Virus record (IMG/VR): IMGVR_UViG_3300045988_139374
Span: 1 to 64,000 of that record
Direction: 5' to 3' (one strand)
DNA from: a virus
DNA length: 64,000 nucleotides
The notes beneath the pieces were generated by a model. That model saw only the letters and a list, made by a program, of their open reading frames with translations, was not told where the DNA came from and ran no database searches. The translations under genes and the position numbers were made by a program. Shown in pieces: positions 4,425 to 53,129 of the stretch (within the stretch, counting starts at the first letter, position 1; every line of letters starts with the position of its first letter).

Positions 4425-4425
4425 T

Positions 4426-4473
4426 TTGATTAGATATTATAATATTGATAAAGACAAATAGTTTCTTTATCAA
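4426..4473 (+). promoter_or_regulatory. phage promoter box TTGATTAGATATTATAATATTG plus 5' stem-loop (4445-4453 / 4465-4473)
   Basis: consensus box copy; the hairpin starts at the conserved terminal TG. Confidence 0.7.
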
Positions 4474-4506: not shown

Positions 4507-5811
4507 ATGGACATCAGCAAAATGAACAAAATTTTTATCGATAGCGAATTAAAAAATAGTCAACGGGATATATTATTAAGCAGAATAATGAATACCAATG
4601 ATGATAATGATGTAAGCATGTATTTACGTGACCAATATATAATACAGCAGTTTATTGGAAATACTGCTGTAATTACTGGTCGTGGATCTTTTATCGTTAT
4701 CACACATATTGATCATGATAATGTATCAATTATGGTTGGAGGAACTGATCCTAGACGTAATTATAAAATTACTTCTTATGTGGATAAAGATACGTATTCT
4801 ATCAAAGATATATATGCCCAAGATATTAGCTATTTGCTTAATAAGAAAACTGTGATTATAGATGAGAACTATACTGATGATTATATTAGATGGACGCTTG
4901 CTGGCATAATTATCCAATTTCATGTCCTTGCTATGCATCCAGAATATTATGATCAAAAAGTTGTATATGCTAAAAATACCAGTAAGAAAGGAAATAAAGC
5001 TCCACATAGAGTAATGGAATATAGATTAAATAAAAGATATTTTATTAATGACTATATTGGTGCTAGATACTCTAAGTGGGATAGAATTTCTATTGGAAAT
5101 AACTATAATTTATACGATCCTAATAATATTCTTACTCCAGTATTTCCTCTTCAACATGGAGTTATCACTTCTGGATTTGAAAATCTCACATCTAGACAAG
5201 ATGATAGAGCTGCAATTTCCAGAAATATAACAATGAAATTAGCAATTGCATTTAATGTAATTACTAAATCCACAATTTCTATTAAAGCATATGCTTTAAA
5301 TATTGATGGCAAAGGAGAGATTATTTCAAACTGTATTTATGATTTTAAGTCAGACACTTTTGAAAGAATATCTGATGACAATTTTGTCGATACAATAAAA
5401 GCAAATGTTTCAGAAGTCATTGATGAAGCTGGTGATAATGATATTATTCATCTTTGCATCGATGTACTGAAGTATATGGCTTATCATGTAGAACTCGTTT
5501 CCAAAAAGGATGTAGTTACTGGATCTATTGAAAGTTCTAGTAACTATACTCCCAAAGCAAATGATAAGCCTCGGTTTGAGACTAGTATCTGCTCTCATAA
5601 GGTATATGGAATTACTAAGAAAATAATTCCTGTTACTGAAGCAGAAGCTAAGGAGAAACGGAAATATACGCCTTGCCAGTATGCTGTTACTGTCAAGGGC
5701 CATTTCCGTCATTATAAATCTGGCAAGGTAATCTGGGTTGAACATTTTATCCGTAATAAAGATAAAGAATTTAAACCTAAAGATTATGTTGATAAAAAGA
5801 AAGAAGGCTAA
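4507..5811 (+). CDS. hypothetical protein, 434 aa
   Basis: AAGGAGG SD; monocistronic between promoter box and terminator. Confidence 0.85.
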   Translation: MDISKMNKIFIDSELKNSQRDILLSRIMNTNDDNDVSMYLRDQYIIQQFIGNTAVITGRGSFIVITHIDHDNVSIMVGGTDPRRNYKITSYVDKDTYSIKDIYAQDISYLLNKKTVIIDENYTDDYIRWTLAGIIIQFHVLAMHPEYYDQKVVYAKNTSKKGNKAPHRVMEYRLNKRYFINDYIGARYSKWDRISIGNNYNLYDPNNILTPVFPLQHGVITSGFENLTSRQDDRAAISRNITMKLAIAFNVITKSTISIKAYALNIDGKGEIISNCIYDFKSDTFERISDDNFVDTIKANVSEVIDEAGDNDIIHLCIDVLKYMAYHVELVSKKDVVTGSIESSSNYTPKANDKPRFETSICSHKVYGITKKIIPVTEAEAKEKRKYTPCQYAVTVKGHFRHYKSGKVIWVEHFIRNKDKEFKPKDYVDKKKEG

Positions 5812-5817
5812 TTATAT

Positions 5818-5859
5818 AAAAGGAGTGGGTTTTATTTGCCCACTCCTTTTATTTTTTTT
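5818..5859 (+). terminator. intrinsic terminator AAAGGAGTGGGTTTTATTTGCCCACTCCTTT plus T-tract
   Basis: near-identical to the terminator at 14965-15008. Confidence 0.9.
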
Positions 5860-5873
5860 ATAATTTTATATTA

Positions 5874-5920
5874 TTGATTAGATATTATAATAATGGAGAT
5901 AAAGAATATATTTTATCTCC
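5874..5920 (+). promoter_or_regulatory. phage promoter box TTGATTAGATATTATAATAATG plus 5' stem-loop (5895-5903 / 5912-5920)
   Basis: exact consensus copy. Confidence 0.7.
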
Positions 5921-5965: not shown

Positions 5966-6790
5966 ATGGGACGTATCAAAGATATCAGCAATGCCTCTGG
6001 CATCAATATTCACGTTACGAAGGAATTTGTGCGTGATAATGATGCAAAGATCGTTGTTGGTGAGTTGACCAACTGGTTCGGTGATAATACTGGTCCTGAC
6101 TGGGTTAATCTCACTATGAACAAGGTCGGAGAAATCACCGATTTCAACTTCTACTTCACTGAAGCTGAGGCAGCAAATTTCTCTGGCATCAAATTCAACA
6201 ACGTTGATCATGATATTACGATCGATTATCATGGTCAGGTCGAAAGCATCACTGGCTGGGGCCGTGATGACTGTACCACATATAATTTCCAGACATCTGT
6301 ATTGGATAGCTACATGTACTATGAAGCTATCTACGTTGACAATATTGATATTATCATTAATGGCAATAATTTTGCTATCAGTGGTAATGTATTTGATATT
6401 ACCAATGATGAGCTGTTGTTCCATTTTACAGCTGTTCCTGGAATCAACAGCTATGACATCGATTACTATACCTGTGATGGCAAGAAGATCGATGCTCTTG
6501 GGATGGCTAATATCGAAGCCAGCAAAATTTGTGGTGCTGGCAATGAGGATGTAGATAATGCTATCTACTATGTGATTTCCAGCAAGATTTACGATGCCAT
6601 GATCGAGACTCTTCCGATCTCGATTTTATTTAAAGTGTGCTATGGTGTTAATGATGCGCACAAAAAGAATCCTAATGCTCCGACTGCAAAGGAGTATATC
6701 AAGGAGCTGTTCAATGATGGTGCCATCGATCGGTTCCTTGCAGAGTTTATGATGTCTTTGATTGGCAAATACGGAAACATCCGCACCTAA
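5966..6790 (+). CDS. hypothetical abundant protein, 274 aa (G/C-ending codon bias, monocistronic)
   Basis: AGGAGG SD; flanked by promoter box and terminator; codon usage unlike neighbours. Confidence 0.85.
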   Translation: MGRIKDISNASGINIHVTKEFVRDNDAKIVVGELTNWFGDNTGPDWVNLTMNKVGEITDFNFYFTEAEAANFSGIKFNNVDHDITIDYHGQVESITGWGRDDCTTYNFQTSVLDSYMYYEAIYVDNIDIIINGNNFAISGNVFDITNDELLFHFTAVPGINSYDIDYYTCDGKKIDALGMANIEASKICGAGNEDVDNAIYYVISSKIYDAMIETLPISILFKVCYGVNDAHKKNPNAPTAKEYIKELFNDGAIDRFLAEFMMSLIGKYGNIRT

Positions 6791-6851: not shown

Positions 6852-6893
6852 TTCAGGCAGATATTATAATAATGGTAAAGAAGATATCTTTAC
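6852..6893 (+). promoter_or_regulatory. phage promoter box (GCAGATATTATAATAATG) plus 5' stem-loop 6875-6893
   Basis: core box identical to consensus; the upstream TTGA part is diverged. Confidence 0.65.
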
Positions 6894-6928
6894 TATATAT
6901 CTTTTATAAAATAGAAAGGATGTACACT

Positions 6929-9326: not shown

Positions 9327-9360
9327 ATGTAAGCCCAATATTTCAATAATATTTATTATT

Positions 9361-9409
9361 TTGAATAGATATTATATAATTGAGAGTATAAATAATGTAT
9401 TGCTCTCAA
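9361..9409 (+). promoter_or_regulatory. phage promoter box TTGAATAGATATTATATAATTG plus 5' stem-loop 9380-9409
   Basis: consensus copy with a 2-nt AT insertion; hairpin TTGAGAG/CTCTCAA. Confidence 0.65.
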
Positions 9410-9437: not shown

Positions 9438-9785
9438 ATGAAAAAGACAGACAAAAAGAAAAGGTACTTCGAGTTTCAGCATACGCTCGACTATTTCTTT
9501 TGTGAGCACGAAGGAATAGACGAAGAAGATTATTTCAAATTAAATGAAATAAAATCTGGAATCATTTTCTTTATGTGCAAGGATAAATTCCATGAGAATA
9601 GCACTTGCTTTCTAGCAAATTGCAAAAGCCAAATCTATGAGAATTTAAACAAGCTTGTAGAAAAGCATAAAGATCTTGAGCATAATGCTAAGATCCTGAC
9701 AGAGTTCATGGAAGATTTTTATCCAGATATTAAAATCAACTATGGACAGATGTGGAAAGATGGTATTCTTCTGCTGGAGGAATAA
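9438..9785 (+). CDS. hypothetical protein, 115 aa, first gene of a nine-gene operon
   Basis: GAAAGGA SD; ORF. Confidence 0.75.
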   Translation: MKKTDKKKRYFEFQHTLDYFFCEHEGIDEEDYFKLNEIKSGIIFFMCKDKFHENSTCFLANCKSQIYENLNKLVEKHKDLEHNAKILTEFMEDFYPDIKINYGQMWKDGILLLEE

Positions 9786-9788
9786 ATA

Positions 9789-10715
9789 ATGCCATATACA
9801 GTTAAGCAAATCTCTAATTTACTAAATGTAGATCCAGAGACTGTTAGACGATGGATAAGACGAGGAGATCTGAAGGCTACACAAAGATCTAAGAAAGATG
9901 GAAATGTAATATCTGAAGATCAGTTAAATGAATTTTTAATATCTCGTCCAAAATATTCTCAAATTAAAATTAAGCCATCAAAAGTTAAAAAAGTAAAAGT
10001 TATAATTCATAAGTCTAAGAGGAGAAATAAAGCTATGATGAATGTACTAAATGCTTCTGATACTACCATTATCTCTTATGATAGCTCTGTTGCTACTAAG
10101 AGATTTATTACCAATAATGACCTTGGTAAAACCTTGGCCTTTGGTGGTAACAATCCTGCCCCGAGTGCATTGCTTGCTACCTTGCTTCGCACTGCTACTC
10201 TTAAAGCAGCACGTGAACTTGCAGAATATCGCAGAACTCATCCTGCGACTGTGAAAGATGATGATTATTATCGCCATCTTGAGTTTGGTCATCAGTCTTA
10301 TAGAATGGATGGCTGTGGCTATAAGACTATATTCTTCAATGTTGATATTACTGATGTTAAGGATATCAACAAGGTGAATGAATTCATTAACAGCTGTGCA
10401 AATATCAGCTCTGATGAGTTTAAAAAGTATATGGCAGATACCACTAAGTCTGAAGAATATATGCTGAAGATGAATTTTGGTATCAACTTTGGTGATCAGC
10501 CGGATTATGATGTATTTAATCCTGCTGCTGGTCAGTATGAGGTGATTAAATACCTTGTAAAATGTGTTCTGCTTGATATGCGTCATGCATTTATGCAGAA
10601 TAAGGGCCTCAGATATATCTCTTTTGAAAATAATAAGGATCCTGAATCGATTTATATTATTGCAGAAAAGAAATATACTGACAAGAATATTGTTACTCTT
10701 ACCATTGGTGCCTAA
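9789..10715 (+). CDS. DNA-binding protein with an N-terminal MerR/excisionase-type HTH
   Basis: N-terminus YTVKQISNLLNVDPETVRRWIRRGDLKA matches the excisionase-family HTH pattern; the C-terminal part resembles downstream paralogs. Confidence 0.7.
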   Translation: MPYTVKQISNLLNVDPETVRRWIRRGDLKATQRSKKDGNVISEDQLNEFLISRPKYSQIKIKPSKVKKVKVIIHKSKRRNKAMMNVLNASDTTIISYDSSVATKRFITNNDLGKTLAFGGNNPAPSALLATLLRTATLKAARELAEYRRTHPATVKDDDYYRHLEFGHQSYRMDGCGYKTIFFNVDITDVKDINKVNEFINSCANISSDEFKKYMADTTKSEEYMLKMNFGINFGDQPDYDVFNPAAGQYEVIKYLVKCVLLDMRHAFMQNKGLRYISFENNKDPESIYIIAEKKYTDKNIVTLTIGA

Positions 10716-14954: not shown

Positions 14955-14964
14955 TCTTTAATAT

Positions 14965-15008
14965 AAAAGGAGTGGGTTTCATTTGCCCACTCCTTTTATT
15001 TTTTTTTT
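14965..15008 (+). terminator. intrinsic terminator AAAAGGAGTGGGTTTCATTTGCCCACTCCTTTT plus T-tract
   Basis: near-identical to 5818-5859. Confidence 0.9.
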
Positions 15009-16727: not shown

Positions 16728-16761
16728 AGAGGTAGGGAATCGCTTCCCTACCTCTTTTTTA
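16728..16761 (+). terminator. intrinsic terminator (AGAGGTAGGGAA / TTCCCTACCTCT plus T6)
   Basis: 12-bp GC-rich stem plus T-tract. Confidence 0.9.
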
Positions 16762-16933
16762 TCATTTTACCACTATTTTTGGCCAAGTAAACTTTTTTTC
16801 AGATAGATATTTTAAAATTGTATTAATTTTAAAAATTGTTTAAATTAATCTAAAATAATCTTAATTATATTCACTATTCTTAAAGATATTTTATATCAAA
16901 TATACTAGTCTTAAAGAAACAATATTTGGATTC

Positions 16934-18236: not shown

Positions 18237-20030
18237 ATGAATGATAATATAAATATTATTGGAGAATATGGATATATTGATACCTCATATGATCCTCTTG
18301 ATAAATTCTTTGAAAGTATAGATAATAGTCCTGAATGGTTAGCCCTTGATGAAGTATCTTATCAACAAAGAGCAGAAAATGCTGTTCTTCAACTTGAGAT
18401 CATGGATATTCCTCTATATATTAAACAGAATGAGCTTCAAGAAATTACTAATCCTACTTTCTTTTCTCCTTCTGGAGCTCCTACATCTGATGGCCTACTT
18501 TCTAATGAAATCTTTGGATTTACACAGAAAGAAAGATCTGGTATTTATGCATATATTGATCTAGGAGAATGGTTTATTGATCCTTCTTGCTGGAAAACTC
18601 TTACTAAACTAGATTCTAAATTTAAGGGAATTGTAAATGGTATTAACCATTTTATCATTTCTCCTGATGGAGATCTAGTAGAAGATCCTACTGGAGAAAC
18701 CGGTATTAAATGGCTTAAAGCTAATTTTAAGAAAATTAAATTTAAGTCTACAAAGTCACGTACTAGAGATATGCGTATCAAATATATTATGCATAACTTC
18801 GAAAAAGGAAGAATGTTTATTAATAAATATATTGTCATTCCTCCTTACTATCGTGACGTAAATACTACCGGTAAGCATACAGGTGTTGGTCAGATTAATA
18901 CTTTCTATGTTAATCTTATTACAGCATCTAGAGCATTAAAAGAAAATGCTGACTATGGACTTTCTATGGCAGATACTACTTGCTATAGAATTCAGAATAC
19001 ACTAAAAGCTATTTATGACTGGTTCTGTGGAAACTCTAATAGTGATATTAAAGATAAAGGATCTGGATTAGGAGGAAAATTTGGTCTTATTAGATCTAAT
19101 ATGGGATACACTTCTGACTATTCTTCTCGTCTAGTTCTATCTGCACCTAATCTGAATACCAATAGTGTAAATGATCTAATGGTAAACCTAGATAAATCTG
19201 CTATTCCTCTAGCAGCAGTTGCTGCAGACTTTTATCCTTTCATGATGTTCCATCTAAGAAAATTCTTTGAAAACGAATTTCAAAATGTTACTTCTTATGA
19301 GGGAATTAATGTTCAAGGAAATCCTATTCATCTAGAACTTGCTGAAGATCCTATGGCATATTTTAATGATGATATGCTTAAAGATCATCTAAAGAAATTT
19401 GTATATGCTCATAATAACAGATTTATTCCTATTGAATTGCCTCTAAAAGATCCTAGTGTTGGAGAATATTATATGCAATTCAAAGGTGCTAGATGGAATA
19501 GTGCAACTAATGCTGCAATGAGTCCCGAACCTACTTTGCAGAGACCTCTTACTTGGGTTGATGTAATTTATATTTCTGCAAAAAGAGCAACTGAAGGAAA
19601 GCAGATTTCCTTTACTCGTTATCCTTATGATTCTTACTTTAATACAATTTATACTGGCATTGAAATTGCTACTACTAAGGAAACTGAAGAAATTATCCTA
19701 AATGGAGAATTGTATAAATTCTATCCGAAGATTAGATTGTCCGATATTAATCAACCTTCTGCTCAGAAGTTTATTGATACAATGCAGATCTCTAATTTGT
19801 ATCTAAATGGTATGGGCGCTGACTATGATGGCGATATGGGACAAGTCAAAGGATCTTTCTTTAAAGAAACGAATGATGAGCTTTCTAACTTTAGTAATTC
19901 TAAAGCTAATTTTATTAATATGGCATGTACAAATATTCGTGTATCTGAAAAGGAAGCTGTTCAATCTCTATTTAATATGACTCTAGTACTTAGAGATGAT
20001 AAAGATAAACTAACAGATCCTACCTATTAA
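18237..20030 (+). CDS. multisubunit RNA polymerase beta-prime subunit, N-terminal part (split gene)
   Basis: catalytic Mg-binding motif NGMGADYDGDMG, cf. the universal NADFDGD; size and motif position match jumbo-phage split beta-prime N fragments. Confidence 0.85.
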   Translation: MNDNINIIGEYGYIDTSYDPLDKFFESIDNSPEWLALDEVSYQQRAENAVLQLEIMDIPLYIKQNELQEITNPTFFSPSGAPTSDGLLSNEIFGFTQKERSGIYAYIDLGEWFIDPSCWKTLTKLDSKFKGIVNGINHFIISPDGDLVEDPTGETGIKWLKANFKKIKFKSTKSRTRDMRIKYIMHNFEKGRMFINKYIVIPPYYRDVNTTGKHTGVGQINTFYVNLITASRALKENADYGLSMADTTCYRIQNTLKAIYDWFCGNSNSDIKDKGSGLGGKFGLIRSNMGYTSDYSSRLVLSAPNLNTNSVNDLMVNLDKSAIPLAAVAADFYPFMMFHLRKFFENEFQNVTSYEGINVQGNPIHLELAEDPMAYFNDDMLKDHLKKFVYAHNNRFIPIELPLKDPSVGEYYMQFKGARWNSATNAAMSPEPTLQRPLTWVDVIYISAKRATEGKQISFTRYPYDSYFNTIYTGIEIATTKETEEIILNGELYKFYPKIRLSDINQPSAQKFIDTMQISNLYLNGMGADYDGDMGQVKGSFFKETNDELSNFSNSKANFINMACTNIRVSEKEAVQSLFNMTLVLRDDKDKLTDPTY

Positions 20031-20084: not shown

Positions 20085-20108
20085 TTATGATGATATATTA
20101 TAATAATG
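20085..20108 (+). promoter_or_regulatory. phage promoter box (GATGATATATTATAATAATG)
   Basis: close match to the consensus and to the 28104 copy. Confidence 0.6.
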
Positions 20109-20155
20109 AACCTGATTGGGTTTATATTTTTTCATCTAAAAAAGGAGATAATATT

Positions 20156-24304: not shown

Positions 24305-24354
24305 GAACGAAAAGATATTATAAATTTGAATAGATACATAAGACTTCTGTTCAA
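24305..24354 (+). promoter_or_regulatory. phage promoter box (AAAGATATTATAAATTTG) plus 5' stem-loop 24326-24354
   Basis: core box match; 9-bp hairpin starting at the terminal TTG. Confidence 0.6.
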
Positions 24355-24380
24355 ATATGTTTTTCAAGGGAGAATTAAAA

Positions 24381-25955
24381 ATGGGCGCAACAATGGAAGG
24401 AAAAATCAACGCAATATATTTTATGGATGAATACACTAAGCCTCGGAGGGATAATAGGACTCAGTTTGTTCCTGTTGATCTTTGGCAGCCTTCTTGCCCT
24501 GAAGAGGTTATTATCAATTGTAAGCCTGGTTTCTTTATCGCTCCTCTTAGTGTAATTTTCAACTTGAACATTGATCCTAATGATAAACTGAATTATTTTA
24601 TGCTTTCTACTAAGAAATGCTATAATTCTGCTGACATGAGAAATCATTTGTTTAAGTATGTAAATTACTTCTGCAACTATTATGATTCTGATTGGGAATA
24701 TATGTCTGTGCTCCTTAAAATGAAATTGTGTATTGATAGATATGATGCATCTGCATATTCTATTGAGCATCTTTTCTATGATATGGAGCGTTATATCGTA
24801 AGAAGTAATATTGCAAATAAAGTAGAAAAGATGGTTCAGGATAATTATTATCAGGAACTTAACTATTCTAACATCAAGAATCCTACTTTGCAGTATACTA
24901 ATGATCATGCAAAGCTTCTTCATAAGATGTCTATCCTAATCGATCTTTGTATTCCTCTTCTTACTAATTATGCTTATATGCATAAGGTAGATGTCATTGA
25001 TGATTTTCTGCTTGCATTCTATGATCGTATTCTGCACATGGATCCTAGTATTAATATTTATGCTAAGCTCTATGATACTGCATTTACAAACGTAGTTGCA
25101 AACCAGAAGAACAATCAAGGTATTTGGGTTAAACAAGATATTCGTTCTATTGATACTACTACTCATAGTACAGATTCTGTTCATAATATTATTCTTAATA
25201 TTATGCCCAAGTACACATTTGATAAGAATATCATATCTTTCAACTATGCATCTATCCGTAGAAATACTAGCTATAAGATTACCGATATTTCTTTTGAGTT
25301 CTCTTATGTTCCTATTAGCTCTTCTAAGAGAGATAATGATTCTATCTCTGATTTTGATAAGTTCGAATCTAATCTTATCAGATCTAATGAAGGACTTTAT
25401 CTTCAGAATAAGATTAATGGTGAAACATGTATGAGAAAAATCGAAGACATGTTTGGTCCTTTTGATCCTGTAGAAATTGAGCATTATACTCAGAGAATTA
25501 TGATTGATGCAAATGGAAATTATACCATTAATTCTTTCCAAAAGCAATTGATCTTTAATCTATTCTCTCATTGGTTTGGTGATACTCAGTCTATCTACTC
25601 TATTAATCGTATAGATTTTGTAAAGCTAGTAATTGCTGCTAAGAAACTTCTTATCTCTAAGAATATGGTTGTATTACCGTATATCATTGCTGGTAAGATT
25701 GATAAATTGGTACAGAGAAAGAATGTAAACAAAAAAGAAAAAGCAATTGTAGAATCTTCTCCTTCTTATCCTTTGATTCTTGAAAAGTATAAGAGTGATA
25801 AAGTTGTTAATGAAATTCTTAGTATTGTAGCAACTATTATCTCTTCTGACTTTTCTATTGTGGATATTGATCCTAACATTGATGGAAAACCGTTGAATAC
25901 TGTTGCTGTTAATGTAATCATTGAAGAAGTAGAAATGTTTGTTTTACTTTGCTAA
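24381..25955 (+). CDS. hypothetical protein, 524 aa
   Basis: start MGATMEG with AAGGGAGA SD. Confidence 0.8.
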   Translation: MGATMEGKINAIYFMDEYTKPRRDNRTQFVPVDLWQPSCPEEVIINCKPGFFIAPLSVIFNLNIDPNDKLNYFMLSTKKCYNSADMRNHLFKYVNYFCNYYDSDWEYMSVLLKMKLCIDRYDASAYSIEHLFYDMERYIVRSNIANKVEKMVQDNYYQELNYSNIKNPTLQYTNDHAKLLHKMSILIDLCIPLLTNYAYMHKVDVIDDFLLAFYDRILHMDPSINIYAKLYDTAFTNVVANQKNNQGIWVKQDIRSIDTTTHSTDSVHNIILNIMPKYTFDKNIISFNYASIRRNTSYKITDISFEFSYVPISSSKRDNDSISDFDKFESNLIRSNEGLYLQNKINGETCMRKIEDMFGPFDPVEIEHYTQRIMIDANGNYTINSFQKQLIFNLFSHWFGDTQSIYSINRIDFVKLVIAAKKLLISKNMVVLPYIIAGKIDKLVQRKNVNKKEKAIVESSPSYPLILEKYKSDKVVNEILSIVATIISSDFSIVDIDPNIDGKPLNTVAVNVIIEEVEMFVLLC

Positions 25956-28103: not shown

Positions 28104-28154
28104 TATGAATATATATTATAATAATGAAGTAAAGATATAAAGATTCTTTATTTC
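28104..28154 (+). promoter_or_regulatory. phage promoter box (TATGAATATATATTATAATAATG) plus 5' stem-loop 28126-28154
   Basis: box variant; 10-bp hairpin with one G-U pair. Confidence 0.6.
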
Positions 28155-28201: not shown

Positions 28202-28534
28202 ATGGAAGTTAAAACTGAACAACATAACTTGATTGACGATTGTACCGAGTTGAAAAACTTAGGATACAAACTAGCAATTCTTGAGAGCTCTAAGCAGGAT
28301 CCTGCTTTCAGCTTAGAGGTTAGTGATCGAGCAATGTCGATCATCAGAAAGTACATTGGTGCCGATCAGATGGAGGCTATTGATTGGTATCACTGCGGAT
28401 ATGACAATGGCATCCATGACTGGAACTATGGTGATCATAAGCAGTTCGTCTTCAATCCAACTACTGGTGAAATTACCAGTAAGAAAATTCTGAAGATTGC
28501 AGAACCTGCTGATGCTAAGCGGTTCCGATTGTAG
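28202..28534 (+). CDS. hypothetical protein, 110 aa
   Basis: AGGAGG SD; G/C-ending codon bias. Confidence 0.8.
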   Translation: MEVKTEQHNLIDDCTELKNLGYKLAILESSKQDPAFSLEVSDRAMSIIRKYIGADQMEAIDWYHCGYDNGIHDWNYGDHKQFVFNPTTGEITSKKILKIAEPADAKRFRL

Positions 28535-29239: not shown

Positions 29240-29279
29240 AGGGGAGTGGGCTTTATGCTCACTCCCTTTTATTTTTTTT
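29240..29279 (+). terminator. intrinsic terminator (GGGAGTGGGC / GCTCACTCCC plus T-tract)
   Basis: GGAGTGGG hairpin family. Confidence 0.85.
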
Positions 29280-29347
29280 CTATTTACCGTTGTTAAACCA
29301 TGAAAACTGAACAGTTTAATAACAATTAAAAATGGGAGGTTTTGAAC

Positions 29348-31981
29348 ATGGTTTCTACACCGCTAAACATTGCAAGATATGTGTATAAGCGTGGGCGTTC
29401 ATTGGAAAGAAGAAAGTCTATTCATGAAAATTGTGTAGCATATCCAGATCTTTCTAATGTAAAAAGTAAGGATATTTACAAGTATCGTGTTGAATCTTTT
29501 CTAAGAGATTGTATTGATTATAAAGATGCATTGTCTCTAATGGAGACTATGTACAATGATAATCAATTTGATATCCTTGAGAGTACTGTAAATTATACCA
29601 TTAATAATATTATTCCTACAGTAGAATCCTCTGAACTCCCTGTATGTATTGTTAGAATTGGTGAATCTACTATTGGTGATATTAATAAAGACAGACTTAC
29701 TGAAGCAGCTGCAAATTTTAAATCTATTGATCGTATTATCAAGAATCACAAAACCATTACTAAGAGATTTAGAGTAGATTCTCTAAAAGGAAAGTCTGAG
29801 AAAGATAGAGTACATACTGTATGTGAAATGGTATGTACTTATGGTAGGCCTAAGTATATTAATTTTAATATTGCACTTGAAGAATGTGCATATATTGAAA
29901 GTATTAATGACTTTAGAACCGGTCCAATGAATGAAGATGCTCTAGTAAAATATATTGCTGATTACTTCCTAGAGTTTGATAATAATACAGATAAAGATAT
30001 TCAGAGTTATCGTAAGGCTATTATTGAATCTAAAATTCTTAGCAATAATGCTAGTTGTCTAGTTCCTTATCTAATGGATGGCGCTAAGAAAAATGGATCT
30101 TGGTGGGATAAACTCACTGAATGGAAAATGGATCCTAATAAATCTATGAAGTCCATTATTGAACTTGCCAGAGAAAATTATTCTGATATTGGAGCTTTTG
30201 GAGAAATCATTAATACTGCAAAAGATTTTGCTAGAATTAATGAAATAGAATTTAATATTGGAACTGTATTTTCTGAGTTTAATAGTCCTATTAGTAGAGA
30301 TCAAGCAAAGAATATTCTTCAAGTTATTAAAGAGAATAATGTAAAAACTTCTGATGATCTAATATTTAGTCTAAGATCTATCTGGGAAGCAGAAGTTAAT
30401 GATGATTCTTATTATGCAGATGGTAATACTGTTCCTCAGACATTTACATCTGATGATATTGATAAATTCAAGATGCATAATCTGATTACAGATGCTCAAG
30501 ATGCTGGAGAATTTATTGATCATGCAATATCTACTTCTTCTAAAGAATCTCCTGTAAAGATTACTGATGGAGGAGTTGGAGATATTAGTAAAGTATCTGA
30601 ATCTAATATTATTGATTATATTGATGAAGAGGGATATATCAATATTCCTCTAAGACATTTTTCTTATAATGAAAATAGCAATCCTGATATTGCATATAAG
30701 ATTATTGAATCTACTGCAAAGTGTGCTAATAATATTCTAGCAAATAGAAATTCTAGAATTTATTATACTATTGAAGGCTGTCACTTCTCTTATTCTCTAA
30801 GATCGAAGTACAAAGTTGTACTAAGTGAATCCCAAGAAAATAAGAGAGGATTTACTAATTTTGATAAAAAGAATATTCTTTATATCAATAAATGCGCAGA
30901 AGTTGCTCAAGAGATTGATGAATCTTGCATCTATGAAATTATTGATAATCTTAAGGATAATATGAATTATGCTGCTAATGTTTCTGTAGAAGAAGCTAGA
31001 CTTGTGGCAGATATTATTAAGCCTTATGTAGATGAAAGTGTTTTTGAAGAGTTCATCTATAATTGCCGTCATGAAGGCAATACTAAAGCTGAGGCAATTG
31101 CTAATGCTATTAATGAATCTAATACTGAATTCAATATCGATGCGGATCATAATAGTAGAATTAATCTTTGTGCTAGAGTAATGTCTATGAATGAAGATGC
31201 TAATATTACTCCTATCGTTAAGAAAGCTGCTTCTAATGTAAAGAAAGCAGTTGGTATCAAGTTTAAAGATAAAGATACTGATGATAGTGGTGATAAGAAA
31301 CCTTCTTCTGTGACTAAGAATATAGATGACGATAAGCCTAAACAGAGCAAAGCTATTAATGATAAATCTGATGATCTAGATGATAAAGATACTAAGGAAT
31401 CTAAGAGAGATAATGACGACGGTTCCGAAGATGGAAGCTATGGTAAATCTGTTAAATCTCTAAATGATGCTAAGCTTGCTCTTAGAGGACTTAAAGCAAA
31501 AGGTAAAGATCTATCTGCTAAAGAGCAAGAAGCTTCTAGAGATCTTGATATGGAATTTAATCATCTTCTCAAATGTATTAAGAGTATATATACTACTGAT
31601 CATAGAGAAGAAATCATTACTGGTGAAGTAAATGTAAGTATTTCTAAAATTCTTAAGATTGCTATTGCTTTAGCAGGAGCTGGAGTTGCATCTGGTACAA
31701 TTGCTGTTCCTGCTATTGGTGCAGTTACTCTCTTTGCTCTTTCTAAGCATGCTTCTAAAAAGGAAAAACAAGCAGTTCTTGATCAAATTGATGTTGAACT
31801 TCAAGTGCTAGATCGTGAGATTAGCCGTGCAGAATCTTCTGGATCTGCTAAGAAGTATAGACAACTTCTTATGATCCAGAAAAATCTACAACGTAAGCGT
31901 CAACAAATTCATTTCGGAATTGCAAAAAGTGGAAAGAGAATTCCTATTAGTTCTACTACAGGTTTAAGAGAGAGGGAGTGA
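29348..31981 (+). CDS. large hypothetical protein, 877 aa, with a charged low-complexity region, one hydrophobic segment and a C-terminal coiled-coil; possible virion/head-module protein
   Basis: GGGAGG SD before the ATG at 29348; position upstream of the polyacidic protein and the codon-biased 584-aa protein. Confidence 0.7.
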   Translation: MVSTPLNIARYVYKRGRSLERRKSIHENCVAYPDLSNVKSKDIYKYRVESFLRDCIDYKDALSLMETMYNDNQFDILESTVNYTINNIIPTVESSELPVCIVRIGESTIGDINKDRLTEAAANFKSIDRIIKNHKTITKRFRVDSLKGKSEKDRVHTVCEMVCTYGRPKYINFNIALEECAYIESINDFRTGPMNEDALVKYIADYFLEFDNNTDKDIQSYRKAIIESKILSNNASCLVPYLMDGAKKNGSWWDKLTEWKMDPNKSMKSIIELARENYSDIGAFGEIINTAKDFARINEIEFNIGTVFSEFNSPISRDQAKNILQVIKENNVKTSDDLIFSLRSIWEAEVNDDSYYADGNTVPQTFTSDDIDKFKMHNLITDAQDAGEFIDHAISTSSKESPVKITDGGVGDISKVSESNIIDYIDEEGYINIPLRHFSYNENSNPDIAYKIIESTAKCANNILANRNSRIYYTIEGCHFSYSLRSKYKVVLSESQENKRGFTNFDKKNILYINKCAEVAQEIDESCIYEIIDNLKDNMNYAANVSVEEARLVADIIKPYVDESVFEEFIYNCRHEGNTKAEAIANAINESNTEFNIDADHNSRINLCARVMSMNEDANITPIVKKAASNVKKAVGIKFKDKDTDDSGDKKPSSVTKNIDDDKPKQSKAINDKSDDLDDKDTKESKRDNDDGSEDGSYGKSVKSLNDAKLALRGLKAKGKDLSAKEQEASRDLDMEFNHLLKCIKSIYTTDHREEIITGEVNVSISKILKIAIALAGAGVASGTIAVPAIGAVTLFALSKHASKKEKQAVLDQIDVELQVLDREISRAESSGSAKKYRQLLMIQKNLQRKRQQIHFGIAKSGKRIPISSTTGLRERE

Positions 31982-32984: not shown

Positions 32985-33157
32985 TCATTTATTATTAATT
33001 TATCGTAACTAATAAATAAAATATTTGCAAGAAACCTCTCTAATTCTTGCTTATATCTTTAAAACCCTTTATACAAAAAATAACTAAAATATTTTCGATT
33101 TACTATTTGTCACGTCCTTCAAATAGTAAGTCATAAATTATCAAGGAGGATAACCAA

Positions 33158-34912
33158 ATGCCTATCGGTGCTGTTAACTCTAAGACGGGCTTTGTGGGTG
33201 GTAGCTTTATGCGCGATCCCATGAGTGACTACACTCAGAGTTTTATTGATGTTGCAAAGAATATCCTTGAAGAGTCTAATCTGGATATTTTTGAGGATAC
33301 TAAAAAGATTCTTCGTCGTCCCGCAGAGAAGGAAGCTCTGAAGGAATTCTTCTGCGAGAATTTCATGGATGAAGATATTCGTGATCCCTTTGTCAAAGAT
33401 CCTGGTTACATCGAGGATCAGCATGCTATGATGGAGCAGCAGTTCGAGAACGATGCAGATGCCATTCTGGAGCATGCTTCCATGGCTGATTACAACCCCG
33501 TCATCGGTATGACTTTCCCTGTTCATAAGAACATTCTGATGAACATGGTCTTCGATAAGGGTGCAATCCAGAAGGTTGTTGCAGAGGGTCCCAAGTTCAC
33601 CATGACTATGGAGCGTCGTCTGCTGGTTGATACCAAGGGCAACGAGATTGATATGTTCCTGGATCAGAATAAGATGACTGCTGCCATCGATGAGTCTAAT
33701 CCTGTATACGAGATCGAGCTGACCCTGCCTGAGATGGGTGACACTGACGTTCTGAAGCAGTGTGGTGGCACCAAGCAGGATGATCTGTCTATTAAGACTC
33801 ATATTTCTGCTATCCAGATCGAGAAGCTGTACATTGCTGAGGGCGATATTATGCCCGATGCAGATGGTTTCATTCGTTCCAATGGTAAGATCGCTACCGC
33901 TGCTGATGTTGGTGAAGTCAGCAATGTCTGGTTCCCCACTAACATTCGCTTTGCTCCTGGCTACAACCAGTATGAGCGTACCTTTGTTGCTCCAATTGAG
34001 CTGATTGTCCGTAAGGATGCTGCTACGACTGAGAAGATCGCTGATTCTCTGACTGGTACCATGGACAAGAATGTCTTTACTATCTTCTCTGCTGCTGGCA
34101 AGATCAAGAAGGTTATGCTGGCTGCTGAGCTGGATACTGCTAATCACATGCTGGATACCTGCACTGTGAAGTGGGATACCTTCACTAAGCTGATTGAGAT
34201 CCCGAATGCTATTCCTCTGTCTGTTACCATCAGCCCTGAGGAAGTTAAGGATCTTGCTGCTCTGTACCAGGTTAACCAGCTGACCAAGATCATGTCTCTG
34301 CTGAAGACCACTCTGGCTAACTACAAGGATGACAAGATCAAGCAGTTCCTTGATGACTCCTACGAACGCCTTGACCCGAGAAGCAAGTCGTACATGGAGT
34401 TTGATTACGCTCCTCCCACGGGTTATGCTCTGGATCCGCTGACCTGGCGTCATTCGATGTTCTTCGATGCATTCGATACCGAGGTTACTCGTATGCTGCA
34501 GGTTCTGAATGATCCTAATATGGTCATTACTGTCTTCGGTGATCCTGATCTGGTTCGTAAGATTACTCCTGTTGAGTATTCCTACACTACTCCCAATACT
34601 ATTGGTGCAGTTGATCTGGATTACAAGCGTACCGTTGTTACCTCTGATAAGCGCATCTATCAGTTCATTGGTAGTGATAAGCTCCGCTGGTCCGATACAC
34701 TTGTTGTAATTTTGTGTCCGCATAACAGCAACCGCATGACTTACAGAATCTTTGATTATCAGATGTATGTCTCCAACGAGATTCGTAACGCTGCTAATCC
34801 GACTCTGCCTGCAGTCACTGCGTTTGAGCGCTTCCTAGTAGACGAGTATCAGCCCGTACAGGGTCACGTCGTCATTAAGAATAGAAGCGGATTCAAGCCG
34901 GCTCAACCGTAA
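33158..34912 (+). CDS. very highly expressed structural protein, probable major capsid protein, 584 aa
   Basis: strongest G/C-ending codon bias in the window. Monocistronic with a long structured leader, AAGGAGG SD and a terminator. No motif-level proof. Confidence 0.4.
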   Translation: MPIGAVNSKTGFVGGSFMRDPMSDYTQSFIDVAKNILEESNLDIFEDTKKILRRPAEKEALKEFFCENFMDEDIRDPFVKDPGYIEDQHAMMEQQFENDADAILEHASMADYNPVIGMTFPVHKNILMNMVFDKGAIQKVVAEGPKFTMTMERRLLVDTKGNEIDMFLDQNKMTAAIDESNPVYEIELTLPEMGDTDVLKQCGGTKQDDLSIKTHISAIQIEKLYIAEGDIMPDADGFIRSNGKIATAADVGEVSNVWFPTNIRFAPGYNQYERTFVAPIELIVRKDAATTEKIADSLTGTMDKNVFTIFSAAGKIKKVMLAAELDTANHMLDTCTVKWDTFTKLIEIPNAIPLSVTISPEEVKDLAALYQVNQLTKIMSLLKTTLANYKDDKIKQFLDDSYERLDPRSKSYMEFDYAPPTGYALDPLTWRHSMFFDAFDTEVTRMLQVLNDPNMVITVFGDPDLVRKITPVEYSYTTPNTIGAVDLDYKRTVVTSDKRIYQFIGSDKLRWSDTLVVILCPHNSNRMTYRIFDYQMYVSNEIRNAANPTLPAVTAFERFLVDEYQPVQGHVVIKNRSGFKPAQP

Positions 34913-34998: not shown

Positions 34999-36207
34999 TT
35001 ATTCTTTAATAGGTTTTCCATTATCATCTACAAAATAAATTGCATTTATAGGAATTTTTACATTTCCTTTGGAATCCATAATAGGAGTATTTAATGCATC
35101 TTCAATACTCATACCTTTATTAAGTCTATGGCAAGTTGTGTCTTGTGTAAATCCTCTAGCTCTATCCCAATCAGCACAGGTCATGGTAGTTCCATCATAT
35201 GTAATATATCTAATTCCTTGCGTTGCTGGTGTTGTTAATGCTCTATCAATATTCCATCCTTTTTTAATAATTCTATCATATAATAGATCATTACTGATAC
35301 CGGTAATAGATGACCATTCTTGAAGTGTATGAATTTCACCATAAGAGTTAGCTATTCTAATAAATTGATCATTAATTGCTGTATATAATGTTTGATATGC
35401 AGTCCATTGTTTATTTACATATCTATCATAGATAGTGGCATAAGGAATTCCTGTAATAGTTGACCATTCGGAAATCGTATGAGTTTCTCCATTATATTCA
35501 ATATAAATAGTATTTCTTTTATTATTTGCTTGCATTTTAGAATCTGCCCATCTACAATTATTAGGCTCATAATTACCATTTACATTAATTCTATCAATAG
35601 ACAATTCATCTGTATATCCATTAGCCATTGCCCAATTATAGAAATTAATAAATCCATTCTCACCTCTCCATGCATTGCATACTTTAATTCCTCTTCCGCC
35701 ATAATCCATATAATGATCATTATTTTTATTATAGCATCTATCGAGCATGTTTTTATATGTATTATAGATTCTAGTTCCATGCATTCCATGCTTTGTAGCT
35801 GCTTCTACAATAGCGCATCCACAAGATTTAGTATGGCCATTACGAAGACTATGCCCTCTTACGATACACTCATTACCACAAAGGCATTTACATTTCCAGC
35901 ATACATGCTTTTCTCCATTCTTATCAATATAATCATCAGCTCTTTCTATTACCGTAAGTTTACCAAAAGTTTGTCCGGTTAAATCTTTTAATTTATTTGC
36001 AGATTGACACCCACAATGCCAAGCATGACCATTTCTTAATAAATTACCAGGAACGCTTCTCAATCCACCACATTGGCATCGACAAATCCAGCGAGCGACG
36101 TGTTTTCCAGTCTTAGGTTGAATATAATCATTTTCATCTCTCCTTAATACTGTTAACATACCATATTGCTTCCCGGTTAAATCAGTTGTAGTGTAATTAG
36201 TTCGCAT
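34999..36207 (-). CDS. Zn-ribbon (x2) plus HNH-like (YGGRGI...DRINxNGNYEPNNCRW) plus 3 helix-turn-helix-like repeats; homing-endonuclease-like protein
   Basis: CxCxCG...SCGC motifs twice. Degenerate beta-beta-alpha-Me-type motif. AAGGAGG SD on the minus strand. The only long minus-strand gene inside a plus-strand block. Confidence 0.75.
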   Translation of the reverse strand: MRTNYTTTDLTGKQYGMLTVLRRDENDYIQPKTGKHVARWICRCQCGGLRSVPGNLLRNGHAWHCGCQSANKLKDLTGQTFGKLTVIERADDYIDKNGEKHVCWKCKCLCGNECIVRGHSLRNGHTKSCGCAIVEAATKHGMHGTRIYNTYKNMLDRCYNKNNDHYMDYGGRGIKVCNAWRGENGFINFYNWAMANGYTDELSIDRINVNGNYEPNNCRWADSKMQANNKRNTIYIEYNGETHTISEWSTITGIPYATIYDRYVNKQWTAYQTLYTAINDQFIRIANSYGEIHTLQEWSSITGISNDLLYDRIIKKGWNIDRALTTPATQGIRYITYDGTTMTCADWDRARGFTQDTTCHRLNKGMSIEDALNTPIMDSKGNVKIPINAIYFVDDNGKPIKE

Positions 36208-36239: not shown

Positions 36240-36350
36240 TATGTATACATTATAATAAAATATTAATGCGGATCCATGAGTATCTTACCGGTTCAATGCA
36301 ACGTAGTAGAACAGGCTGATATTCATGATCAATTAATATAATAAATTATT
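36240..36350. promoter_or_regulatory. divergent control region: box-like ACATTATAATAAAA, long hairpin (36271-36284 / 36318-36330), second box-like CAATTAATATAATAAAT
   Basis: partial matches to the promoter box between two divergent paralogs. Confidence 0.35.
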
Positions 36351-36365: not shown

Positions 36366-37289
36366 ATGGCACTTACTAAAATTAAAATTGGAGATCGATT
36401 TGGAAGGCTAACTGTAATAGGTTATGCTGGACATGAAAGAAGTAAAAATGGATCTAGCAAGTTATTAATTAAATGCAAATGTGATTGTGGTAATGTTATT
36501 ATTACTAGATCAAATAATTTAACTAGAGGAGATACTAAATCTTGTGGATGCTATAGTAAAGAAGTAGCTAGAGAAATCCATTTAGGAAAAGCTTATAACT
36601 ATAAGCATGGAGGTACGATGTACAATTCTAGATTGTATAAAGTATATATAACCATGCATCAAAGATGTGAGAATCCTAATTGCGATCATTATGATAGATA
36701 TGGCGGTAGAGGAATTTATGTATGTAAAGAATGGTCTGGAGAAAATGGATTTTCTAATTTTAGAGAATGGGCTATGAATAATGGATATAATCCTGATGCT
36801 CCAAAAGGTGAATGCACAATCAATAGAATTGATAATGATGGGCCTTATTCTCCTGATAATTGTAAATGGGCTAATATGAAAACTCAAATGAATAATTATA
36901 TTACATGTAATGGAGAAACTCATACACTTCAAGAATGGGCCGATAAAAATAATATAAATTTTAGTACTATTGAAAATAGACTTCATAGCGGATGGCCTAT
37001 TGAAAAAGCATTATTCACACCAGCTGAAAAGAATATTACATATATTGATTATAATGGAAATAATTATTCTGTTGCTGAATGGTGTTATATCTTTGGCATT
37101 GCTCAAACTACTATATCTACAAGAATAAAAAAATATGGAATGGATGATCCACATAAGATTTTGCTATATAATAATGGATATAAAAACCAAACTCCTGTGA
37201 ATGCAATTTATTTTGTAGATGAGAATGAACGACCTATTAATCAGCAGGATTATGCTAATGGAGTTAGAGTTGGAAGGAAAGCTTACTAA
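36366..37289 (+). CDS. Zn-ribbon plus HNH-like plus HTH-like repeats; homing-endonuclease-like protein (paralog of the 34999-36207 product)
   Basis: FGRLTVI...CKCDCG...SCGC; YGGRGIYVC; [16 protein letters not shown]; shared C-terminal [13 protein letters not shown]. Confidence 0.75.
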
Positions 37290-38816: not shown

Positions 38817-38829
38817 TCAAAATTTAAGA

Positions 38830-38878
38830 TTGAATAGATATTATAATAATGAGAGTAAGAGAAAAACTCTTACTCTCA
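38830..38878 (+). promoter_or_regulatory. phage promoter box TTGAATAGATATTATAATAATG plus perfect 12-bp 5' stem-loop 38850-38878
   Basis: exact consensus; TGAGAGTAAGAG/CTCTTACTCTCA. Confidence 0.7.
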
Positions 38879-42307: not shown

Positions 42308-42634
42308 TAAGATGAATAAAATATGGCTCACGTTAAATTGCTTAAATTGCGGGGACAATCCCATAACCTTAGTCGACTACAACGTAATCAGAAATGATAA
42401 GCGTGATAGTGGCATGAGTTTTGAACTCAACAGCTTGAAATATAGTAGAGACCATAAGAACTGACTAAGCTAGGATCAACCGAGTGTGCAAGTCACTCAG
42501 ACGCAGCGAAATCTTCTATAGAAATATAGGTGAGACGTTCAACGACTATAATAGCAATAAGTTTAGTATTTTACTAAATGATAAGGTATAGTCTACTCCC
42601 GTACTTAAATATCGGGAAACCGAGGGTAGAAAGG
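42308..42634 (+). ncRNA. group I self-splicing intron, ORF-less, 327 nt
   Basis: follows a U and ends with G. Internal guide AATATG-GCTCAC (42320-42331) pairs with the 5' exon GTGGGT (P1, U-G at the splice site) and the 3' exon ATATT (P10). Removal restores RRTCG-YIGTQFWNQGRTEEIKDRVLHL. Confidence 0.85.
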
Positions 42635-45722: not shown

Positions 45723-46475
45723 ATGGGCAGAATGTATAATATCCAAAGTGGAGATATCTTTGGAAGACTAGTTGTTATTGGAAAAGCAGCAGATTTCATA
45801 GATCCGAAAAGTAAAAAGCATATGACACAGTATCTATGCCAATGTAGTTGCCCTGAAAGAAATACTGTAATTGTAAAAGCTAAGAATCTTGTAGGAAACA
45901 TTACTAGATCATGTGGATGCTTAAGACGAGAAACTACTGCTGCTAAATTTAATAATAAACCTATAGAAAATTATCCTCCTTGTGGATATTATGTAAATGA
46001 AGTAATCTATGCATATCATTATATGATTTATGAAGCTACAAGAGCTCCAGAAACTAAGCACTTTAATATTCCTGTATATGGAGAATGGATTAATTCTAAA
46101 ACTGGAATAAAAGCATTTTATGATGATATGTCTCCTACATATGAATTAGGATGTAAAATTGGTAGAATTAATGACTCTCTTGGGTATAGACCTGATAACT
46201 GTATTTGGGTAGAAAAGAGTATAAAACAATTCGATAGAATAAATGATATGGTAATTAGATATGAAGAATCTTCATATATGGTATCTGAATGGAATAGAGC
46301 AATGGGATATGAAAAGAATACCATAAGAGATAGAATTATAGATGGATATTCCTATGAAGATGCTATATCTGGAACTTATGATGATAGAGATTTTGATTAT
46401 GTAAATGCTATATTTTTTATGGACAAATATGGAAGACCAATAAATAATGAATATGCTAAATATATGATATTCTAA
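45723..46475 (+). CDS. Zn-ribbon plus degenerate HNH-like plus one HTH-like repeat; homing-endonuclease-like family
   Basis: FGRLVVI...CQCSC...SCGC; GRINDSLGYRPDNCIW; C-terminal NAIFFMDKYGRPI. Confidence 0.7.
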   Translation: MGRMYNIQSGDIFGRLVVIGKAADFIDPKSKKHMTQYLCQCSCPERNTVIVKAKNLVGNITRSCGCLRRETTAAKFNNKPIENYPPCGYYVNEVIYAYHYMIYEATRAPETKHFNIPVYGEWINSKTGIKAFYDDMSPTYELGCKIGRINDSLGYRPDNCIWVEKSIKQFDRINDMVIRYEESSYMVSEWNRAMGYEKNTIRDRIIDGYSYEDAISGTYDDRDFDYVNAIFFMDKYGRPINNEYAKYMIF

Positions 46476-46482: not shown

Positions 46483-46530
46483 AAGAGATAGATATTATAA
46501 ATATGATTAGAGATTGATATTATTTCTAAT
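46483..46530 (+). promoter_or_regulatory. phage promoter box (ATAGATATTATAAATATG) plus 5' stem-loop 46506-46530
   Basis: core box match inside the tandem HNH-like gene array. Confidence 0.55.
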
Positions 46531-46553
46531 TTATTATTAAAGGAGTGAAATAT

Positions 46554-47507: not shown

Positions 47508-47530
47508 ATTTTATAAAAGGAGATAAACAA

Positions 47531-53114: not shown

Positions 53115-53129
53115 AAACCTAAAATCAGA

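Follow-up and report, generated by a model that had tools for sequence, protein, structure and literature searches.

Why should one short AT-rich box recur in the intergenic DNA of a virus and be followed, in nearly every copy, by a stem-loop whose sequence changes from site to site? The question is raised by a 64,000-nucleotide stretch of viral DNA (IMG/VR record IMGVR_UViG_3300045988_139374, positions 1 to 64,000; hereafter the window), and in particular by positions 5874-5920, where a 22-bp box ends in a G at which an inverted repeat begins. A first-pass annotation had listed 14 good copies of the box and taken them for a phage-specific promoter class. Our analysis points to an early promoter read by the virion RNA polymerase (vRNAP) of a jumbo phage related to Bacillus phage AR9, combined with a 5'-terminal stem-loop that would protect the early mRNA. 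For this reading as a whole, in which we infer the polymerase, the start site and the stabilization from sequence comparison, we estimate a probability of about 60%. The box itself is ordinary for the AR9-type family; a hairpin at position +1 throughout a regulon appears to be unreported in the open-access text.

A box with a fixed spacing to G

All 14 copies lie on the + strand, in intergenic DNA, at the positions given by the first-pass annotation. With up to three mismatches allowed, the 22-mer has 7 matches in the window against 0.13 expected. A position weight matrix (PWM) spanning -22 to +2 was built from the 14 sites aligned on their terminal G (+1). The sites score 22.7-30.1 (17.6-28.9 on leave-one-out), whereas the next-highest score is 16.1 (G at 16820) and the minus-strand maximum is 9.6, so that this search, which had been put forward as a check, separates the class cleanly (at least 22.7 against 16.1). 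Four weaker variants that had been listed beside the good copies do not belong to it: those at 1717, 16934 and 36247 fall outside the class by their PWM score, and the one at 39 (G at 57), which reaches only 11.4, was rejected.

The invariant or nearly invariant core runs from -15 to -5 and reads A(G/t)ATATTATA (A G/t A T A T T A T A A), with G at -14 in 12 copies and T in 2. T is present at -1 in 13 of 14 copies, G at +1 in all of them and A at +2 in 12. The 22-mer described earlier is thus real, but its conserved part is narrower than the whole, the TTGAwT portion (-22 to -17) carrying only 0.15-1.0 bit per position. TATAAT is perfect in 10 copies and broken in the other four (TATATA or TATAAA), which nevertheless keep ATTAT-N6-G intact; what is constrained is therefore the distance between ATTAT and G.

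Every box is followed by a Shine-Dalgarno (SD) site and an open reading frame (ORF), and the leaders are mostly 48-76 nt long. The expected layout of terminator, box and SD holds for the SD in all copies and for the terminator in 10, where a strong one precedes the box; none was found before 20108, 24328, 38851 and 46505 (boxes are named here by the position of their G). By PWM, the box is absent from the 28.2-38.8 kb block of the window, where the capsid gene lies. Among 33 related IMG/VR contigs, the gene strand has 77 non-redundant matches to the pattern A[GT]ATATTAT[AT]2N4G, and the opposite strand has two.

Relationship to the early promoters of AR9

For AR9, differential RNA sequencing (dRNA-seq) together with primer extension yielded 41 early promoters that follow the consensus AAATATATATTAT-(6N)-G+1 (Lavysh et al. 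2017, PMC5312081). Early transcription of this phage is independent of protein synthesis, being insensitive to chloramphenicol, and was assigned by the authors to the injected virion RNAP; in the early promoters of phiKZ and phiR1-37, too, the start lies 6 nt beyond an extended AT-rich element (PMC5312081). All 14 sites of the window read A(G/T)ATATTAT-N6-G and are identical to AR9 from -13 to -7. The window consensus, (GAAT)AGATATTAT-N6-G, has essentially two differences from that of AR9, AAATATATATTAT-N6-G, at -19 and at -14; at the latter position 12 of the 14 sites have G where AR9 has T. One AR9 early promoter, AAATAGATATTATAATAATG, reads exactly as the window box. The two sets also share the ATATTAT core, an A at +2 and an invariant G set 6 nt from the core. 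The window differs from AR9 and its relative PBS1 in that the six spacer bases are themselves conserved (AAT/A-A-x-T) and that a weak TT(G/C)A is seen at -22 to -18.

The genomic context is also similar. In the window as in AR9, the sites are intergenic, on the coding strand and upstream of genes for subunits of the non-virion RNAP (nvRNAP) and of other early genes; the boxes precede the gene of the fifth nvRNAP subunit and the operons of nvRNAP beta-C and beta-N, as do the annotated early promoters of AR9. Likewise, both sets of split beta/beta' subunits are phage-encoded in the AR9/PBS1 type. Consensus, virion and non-virion RNAP genes, and intergenic coding-strand early-gene context thus all agree with the AR9 type, which supports the box as a putative vRNAP early promoter with G as its predicted start site. 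The proposal of a promoter class for a phage multisubunit RNAP is strengthened by this match in core and spacing and by the vRNAP and nvRNAP subunits encoded in the window. Since sequence, spacing and subunits are AR9-like, the other option offered at first, a redirected host RNAP, is the less likely of the two.

The same core motif is found in the jumbo phages of Staphylococcus aureus (MarsHill, PALS_2 and the S6 group); in MarsHill, a TATATTAT motif was predicted upstream of 29 genes (bioRxiv 10.1101/2020.12.14.422802). Early promoters of the phiKZ type resemble the window in their long conserved AT-rich element, in the injected multisubunit RNAP and in a start about 6 nt downstream. However, they have their own consensus, an extended -10-like AT-rich box with an upstream T-rich tract, and belong to phages of Gram-negative hosts, and a 5' hairpin has not been reported for them in the literature. 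The main difference from AR9 and PBS1 is the hairpin at +1, which is present in 11-13 of the 14 window copies but in only 4 of 37 AR9 promoters, a background level.

A hairpin at the predicted first nucleotide

In minimum free energy (MFE) folds of the RNA from +1 to +40, pairing begins exactly at G in 11 of 14 sites and at or before +3 in 13, and is absent only at 49847, which bears out the earlier observation that hairpins begin at the conserved terminal G. For random G positions of the window, the corresponding rates are 13.5% (+1) and 21% (up to +3), so that P is ~7e-8. When the register is shifted, the count peaks at offset 0 and falls to 0-3 of 14 by offsets 4-8, although 9 of 14 sites still count as hairpin starts at offset -1. 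Requiring +1 to be paired brings 10 of 14 sites to -4 kcal/mol or lower, compared with 10% of GA controls (Mann-Whitney P = 8e-8). The hairpin has its base at the very start that AR9 predicts, so that two independent lines lead to the same nucleotide.

The AU-rich stems are 5-11 bp long and enclose loops of 4-12 nt; their energies are -3 to -15 kcal/mol (the strongest, at 38851, has -15 to -17). In the focal copy, the hairpin at 5895-5920 has the arms GGAGAUAAAG/UUUAUCUCC, 9 bp and -9.4 to -11 kcal/mol. Stem sequences vary and the 5' arms are purine-rich, as had been noticed: purines make up 79% of +1 to +10 against 52% for the strand, and 70-91% of most 5' arms. There are 10 G·U pairs, distributed over 8 of 13 stems. 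Mean folding energy is -6.65 kcal/mol for the sense strand and -4.79 for the antisense strand, and the asymmetry is large in six stems, all of which favor the sense strand. The G·U pairs and this bias argue that the structure is selected in the transcript and is neither a palindrome of double-stranded DNA nor a template-strand hairpin like that of phage N4. The SD never lies within the hairpin and is separated from it by a single-stranded A-rich spacer of 15-40 nt.

Intrinsic termination or attenuation was also considered and rejected, because a GC-rich stem with a U-run is lacking: the AU-rich hairpins are followed by A-rich sequence (CAA...), and a U-run occurs nearby only at 20108.

Conservation of the hairpin in close relatives

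Orthologous promoters were taken from four related contigs (86-99% protein identity), located by the downstream coding sequence only. Among the mapped stem pairs, 193 were unchanged, 13 had a one-sided change that still allows pairing (mostly as G·U wobble), 5 had changed on both sides and still pair, and 12 were broken. Most broken pairs belong to 58472 and 62823, where another hairpin replaces the old one. Changes on both sides include G-C to A-U at 5895 (contig 127334) and two compensatory changes in adjacent pairs at 38851 (contig 126218). At 24328, relatives with 86-91% identity have a wholly different stem that still forms a +1 hairpin. The substitution rate is 8.6% in stems and 15% in loops. 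The hairpin is, by this pattern of substitution, evidently under selection, and its structure rather than its sequence seems to be kept.

Distribution in the wider family

The window clade, together with its relatives at 86-91% identity, has a +1 hairpin of -4 kcal/mol or lower in 62% of promoters against 9% of controls (P = 7e-9). No enrichment was found in IMG/VR clade II (65-73%) or clade III (55-59%), and that in clades IV and V is weak and not significant. The 4 positive promoters among 37 of AR9 are accompanied by a mean folding energy weaker than that of the control. Staphylococcus phage PALS_2, sampled through 16 strict-motif promoters in bases 1-99,900 of MN091626.1, has the hairpin at the same threshold in 13 of 16, compared with 2.7% of controls (P ~2e-18). 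Here too ATATATTAT-N6-G is followed by a +1 hairpin, which is missing where the SD is 5'-proximal, but the hairpins are longer and stronger than in the window, many having 10-13 bp and -10 to -19 kcal/mol; strong examples start at G 37984, 51074, 79187 and 85233. Four PALS_2 hairpins share a nearly identical arm (GAGGTAATGACAT...GTCATTACCTC), which suggests that promoter-hairpin cassettes may have been duplicated in this phage.

Two simple views of the distribution were discarded. AR9-type promoters do not carry the hairpin as a rule, since AR9 and IMG/VR clades II and III are at background, and it is not unique to the window clade, since PALS_2 is strongly positive. Its scattered occurrence in the family fits an adaptive add-on that was gained and lost rather than a requirement of the polymerase. 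Hairpins at +1 are not mentioned in the open-access text of the papers on MarsHill, DC4, SA1, phiKZ, 201phi2-1 and the AR9 transcriptome, nor in a 2026 review of jumbo phages.

Leader length varies along with the hairpin. The median position of the SD is +22 in AR9, +43 in the window and +46 in PALS_2, and promoters that lack the hairpin and have the SD next to the 5' end occur both in the window (49847, SD at +7) and in PALS_2 (87284 and 97383). In the other clades, hairpins were found in 12 of 30 long leaders and in none of 29 short ones, a comparison that is partly trivial, and a rule of either a short leader or a hairpin is no more than suggestive there.

Proposed role in the protection of early mRNA

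In the mechanism that we propose, the injected multisubunit vRNAP would recognize A(G/T)ATATTAT and the AT-rich six bases that follow, and would start transcription at the conserved G that follows ATTAT after six bases. Its transcripts would encode early functions, such as nvRNAP subunits, ligase, an HNH-like protein and many small unknown proteins. In almost every early transcript, the first 16-31 nt would fold with +1 in the first pair, and since this pair includes the first nucleotide, the RNA would have no single-stranded 5' end. The hairpin may in this way block 5'-end-dependent decay, both the removal of pyrophosphate by an RppH-type enzyme and the entry of RNase J or RNase Y, and would act jointly with a strong SD 15-40 nt downstream, as in the aprE leader of Bacillus subtilis.

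Stabilizing 5' stem-loops were reportedly described for Escherichia coli ompA by Emory in 1992, for B. subtilis aprE by Hambraeus in 2002 and for delta-ermC by Sharp and Bechhofer in 2005. The phi10 leader of T7 is another 5'-terminal stem-loop stabilizer. In B. subtilis, RppH acts only where two or more nucleotides at the 5' end are unpaired, and it is from this end that RNase J1 attacks (PMC3997798). Stem-loops at the 5' end stabilize ompA, aprE and ermC-derived mRNAs, and aprE and related mRNAs of B. subtilis also owe part of their stability to ribosome binding (PMC7509114). The window leaders resemble these three in a stem-loop at or a few nucleotides from the 5' end, in a presumed function independent of sequence, in a strong downstream ribosome-binding site and in a leader of about 50-70 nt. 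However, ompA, aprE and ermC are single genes, whereas in the window the hairpin belongs to a whole promoter class and would exert its effect across a regulon. If transcription starts at G, the hairpin lies near the 5' end as in the known stabilizers, and the 18 pair-preserving changes agree with a dependence on structure and not on sequence. A stabilizing function would also fit the +1 position, the action at the RNA level, the free SD and the absence of the hairpin where the SD is 5'-proximal.

Several points weigh against this reading. The start site and the polymerase assignment are drawn from homology to AR9, and the RNAP subunits of the two phages share only about 29% identity. Host decay of the RNase J/Y/RppH type is assumed, the nearest NrdD sequences pointing ambiguously to gut Clostridia and Coriobacteriia. 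Even the nine long leaders of AR9 lack hairpins, and as this phage grows in B. subtilis, the model organism for 5'-end-dependent decay, protection is not obligatory. The link between short leaders and missing hairpins is partly trivial, given that a hairpin needs room. A number of stems are weak, with -3 to -5 kcal/mol, an AU-rich sequence and loops of 9-12 nt. Finally, the motifs shared by 5' arms (GAGAGTAA, GTAAAGA) may reflect a preference of the polymerase for certain initial transcribed sequences.

Alternative explanations

This last point leads to the possibility that the promoter is the same but that the nascent 5' hairpin helps the sigma-less vRNAP to clear the promoter, to peel the RNA off the template or to avoid backtracking, stabilization being incidental. 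The tight link of the hairpin to one promoter class and to its exact start site would be explained in this way, as would the purine-rich initial sequences common to the 5' arms and the conserved T at -1, which often extends the complementarity (the 9 of 14 sites at offset -1). We nevertheless consider an aid to the polymerase unlikely: AR9 and metagenomic clades II and III use the same core without hairpins, promoters with a 5'-proximal SD dispense with them in both the window and PALS_2, and the presence of hairpins does not follow the relatedness of the polymerases.

The hairpin might instead be a handle for a protein, either as a mark of self against a host-shutoff nuclease encoded by the phage or a host sensor of RNA 5' ends, or for a later shutoff of early mRNAs by the phage. 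That shape and position are kept while the sequence varies, and that the hairpin recurs in two distant lineages, would be consistent with recognition. However, a candidate partner protein was not found, loops of 4-12 nt and stems of 5-11 bp are too heterogeneous to be a good basis for specific binding, and such a handle is indistinguishable from plain steric protection of the 5' end. We hold recognition by a protein to be rather improbable.

Much poorer is the case for a -10-only promoter of host sigma-A, in which TATAAT would place the start a few bases inside the 5' arm, leaving the transcript with no 5'-terminal hairpin. The hexamer is perfect in 10 of 14 copies, the DNA upstream is AT-rich and a generic sigma-70 scan matches everywhere in such DNA, but these promoter-like matches are at the level of shuffled sequence (131 against 127 expected). 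A -35 element at 16-18 bp and a TG extension are both missing, and the information at -30 to -23 stays below 0.6 bit. Sigma-A promoters make no use of the invariant AGATAT before TATAAT or of the G 4 nt after it, both of which match the AR9 vRNAP consensus, and the four copies that break TATAAT keep ATTAT-N6-G. TTGAwT and TATAAT are only 6 bp apart and the -35 region is unconserved, so the earlier judgment that they do not form a canonical -35/-10 pair is sound. Spacing, TG and the unconserved -32 to -27 region all depart from the definition of a bacterial sigma-70/sigma-A promoter, which was rejected as a class.

An inverted repeat acting as DNA, as the operator of a dimeric regulator or as an extruded promoter hairpin of the N4 type, can be dismissed as most improbable, for although the repeats adjoin the promoter and the N4 virion RNAP, as first pointed out, does use DNA hairpins, the repeat lies downstream of +1, six stems fold better as sense than as template strand and none the other way round, the polymerase is multisubunit and neither N4- nor T7-like, and stems that differ at every site rule out a common operator. 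Coliphage N4 resembles the window in having an injected polymerase and an inverted repeat at its early promoters. Its enzyme, however, is a single subunit and its DNA hairpin lies upstream of the start, whereas the repeat of the window, at +1 to +31, is transcribed. The N4 promoter hairpin forms on the template strand and has conserved features. The N4-like alternative raised in the first-pass annotation was accordingly abandoned, the hairpin being sequence-variable and downstream of the start and the AR9 class working without it.

Protection of early mRNA by the 5' hairpin thus remains the reading we prefer, and a wider one can be built on it. In the window clade and the S. aureus jumbo phages, the +1 hairpin might be a modular, cap-like shield of the early vRNAP regulon, interchangeable with a 5'-proximal ribosome-binding site, that marks phage against host mRNAs, either to survive attack on the 5' end (by RppH/RNase J-type decay or an anti-phage sensor) or as a handle for shutoff. 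We regard this extension as speculative and probably wrong in at least part. On a practical level, the PWM and the +1 G provide a high-specificity rule by which the early regulon can be annotated in the large family of uncultured jumbo phages from the gut with an AR9-type two-polymerase strategy. The window suggests that a whole promoter class can come with a built-in 5'-terminal RNA hairpin, and because a cultured S. aureus jumbo phage, PALS_2, has the same design, the idea is directly testable. The presence of hairpins in some lineages, against the short leaders of AR9, may bear on how transcripts of an injected polymerase survive the first minutes of infection. The hairpins may also serve as portable mRNA stabilizers for Gram-positive hosts.

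Individual promoters

The promoters are described here in the order of the window, all on the + strand, with hairpin positions counted from G. The first box and hairpin (4425-4471; G 4447; PWM 30.0) have a stem of 8 bp from +1 to +25 and stand upstream of a 434-aa ORF (4507-5811). The focal copy (5873-5920; box 5874-5895, G 5895; PWM 28.9) precedes the ORF at 5966-6790. At 6852-6894 (G 6874), a hairpin from +1 to +21 with 8 bp and one G·U pair is followed by an ORF from 6929. The copy at 9360-9407 (G 9382) has ATAATT as its six spacer bases and a 7-bp hairpin from +1 to +26, and lies before the ORF at 9438-9785. A weak hairpin, from +1 to +16 with 6 bp and two G·U pairs, is found at 20086-20123 (G 20108), where T occupies -14 as in AR9, a terminator is lacking upstream and the ORF begins at 20156. 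The promoter at 24306-24352 (G 24328; +1 to +25, 7 bp) is directly upstream of the homolog of the fifth nvRNAP subunit (24381-25955), and that at 28104-28154 (G 28126; T at -14; +1 to +29, 10 bp) precedes the ORF at 28202-28534.

The strongest hairpin is that of 38829-38877 (G 38851), with 11 bp from +1 to +27; its ORF begins at 38906, and the designation of the product as SSB could not be upheld, since Pfam and PHROG matches are nil. At 46483-46531 (G 46505), a 10-bp hairpin with two G·U pairs (+1 to +27) is followed by the ORF of an HNH-like protein, a second ORF and then nvRNAP beta-C (47498-49771). The box at 49825-49847 (G 49847) has no terminal hairpin; it has an SD at +7 and a mini-ORF of 12 codons, followed by the gene of the NAD-dependent ligase (49923-52298). 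A short, weak hairpin (+2 to +15, 5 bp) occurs at 53130-53166 (G 53152), where a long leader with a mini-ORF opens an operon that reaches nvRNAP beta-N (54714-56666). The remaining promoters are those at 58450-58494 (G 58472; +3 to +23, 8 bp; PWM 30.1; ORF 58527-58973), at 62293-62345 (G 62315), with an interrupted hairpin of 9 pairs from +1 to +31 and a long leader, and at 62801-62845 (G 62823; spacer bases AATACC; +1 to +23, 9 bp; ORF 62875-63162). A possible fifteenth, degenerate box, not in the earlier list, lies at 16798-16820 (TTCAGATAGATATTTTAAAATTG, G 16820; PWM 16.1), downstream of a terminator at 16728-16755. It has one core mismatch (ATTTT for ATTAT); a predicted AR9 early promoter with a single mismatch is transcriptionally silent (PMC5312081).

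In two leaders, 49847-49900 and 53152-53220, a 5'-proximal SD and a mini-ORF (12 and 9 codons, respectively) stand before the real gene (the ligase and the ORF at 53313-53930); these are the promoters without a hairpin or with a weak one. The first genes behind the boxes mostly lack known functions, and only an HNH-like protein (46554-47054) and a helix-turn-helix (HTH) protein (9789-10715) were recognized among box-downstream genes with Pfam and PHROGs. Terminator hairpins are reused as nearly identical modules: 5816-5852 and 14963-14999 both read ATAAAAGGAGTGGGTTT(T/C)ATTTGCCCACTCCTTTTAT, and a second module, GGTCTAGAGAGAAATCTCTAGACC, is found at 49790-49815 and 53095-53120. A similar terminator hairpin is present at 29243-29270.

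Phage identity and gene content

The window has a G+C content of 28-39% and is transcribed almost wholly on the + strand. No nearly identical DNA was found among 50,697 deposited phage records, and the phage is therefore regarded as uncultured. Its genes include those of an RNAP beta-like protein (Pfam Rpb2 domain 6, at 47498-49771) and of the NAD-dependent ligase, together with those of an anaerobic ribonucleotide reductase, a chaperonin and an SbcC-like ATPase. Homologs of AR9 proteins were found by local tblastn of the window against Bacillus phage AR9 and identified through the AR9 annotation. They include the N-terminal subunit of vRNAP beta' (18237-20030, + strand; 29% identity over 430 aa, E = 9e-47, to AR9 118211-123163), nvRNAP beta-C (47498-49771) and beta-N (54714-56666), the fifth, promoter-specificity subunit of nvRNAP (24357-25955) and the major head protein (33158-34912), as well as GroEL, primase, UvsX, ligase and SbcC. 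The vRNAP beta'-N gene, which encodes part of the proposed box-reading enzyme, has no box directly upstream, and the remaining vRNAP subunits are not in the 64-kb window. Judged by this gene content, the window is part of an uncultured, low-GC, AR9-like jumbo phage with a predicted two-polymerase strategy.

Relatives of its beta-C were found in 33 IMG/VR contigs (up to 288 kb) at 39-99% identity, while nvRNAP beta-C of Staphylococcus phages has about 27-28% identity to that of the window and AR9 has 29%. The closest contig, IMGVR_UViG_3300045988_127334, is 98-99% identical in polymerase, fifth subunit and SbcC and 92% identical in the ORF at 4507-5811; the early-gene region may be diverging faster, or may be mosaic. 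The nearest matches of NrdD (40168-42315) are in gut Clostridia (Oscillospiraceae, Faecousia and Anaerotignum) and Coriobacteriia, with 65-73% identity. This hints at an animal-gut origin, with either a gut anaerobe as host or horizontal acquisition of the gene, and does not fix the host. The organisms with the nearest NrdD have a GC content much above that of the phage.

No Rfam 15 family matched anywhere in the window, and a scan for tRNA gave no hits. Five paralogous ORFs with 27-36% identity (34999-36207, on the - strand, 36366-37289, 45723-46475, 46545-47054 and 47058-47507) look like homing-endonuclease-type genes; one has an HNH-endonuclease match in PHROGs and three are immediately upstream of nvRNAP beta-C. 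Candidate matches to the late-promoter consensus of AR9, AACA-N6-TA, a short motif, lie before two genes that lack a box: AACAGTTTAATA (29300-29325) precedes the 879-aa ORF at 29342-31981, and AACAGGCTGATA (36300-36325) precedes the ORF at 36366-37289. Finally, the leader of the major capsid protein contains a 10-bp inverted repeat (33103-33128; TTACTATTTG...CAAATAGTAA) about 25 nt before the SD.

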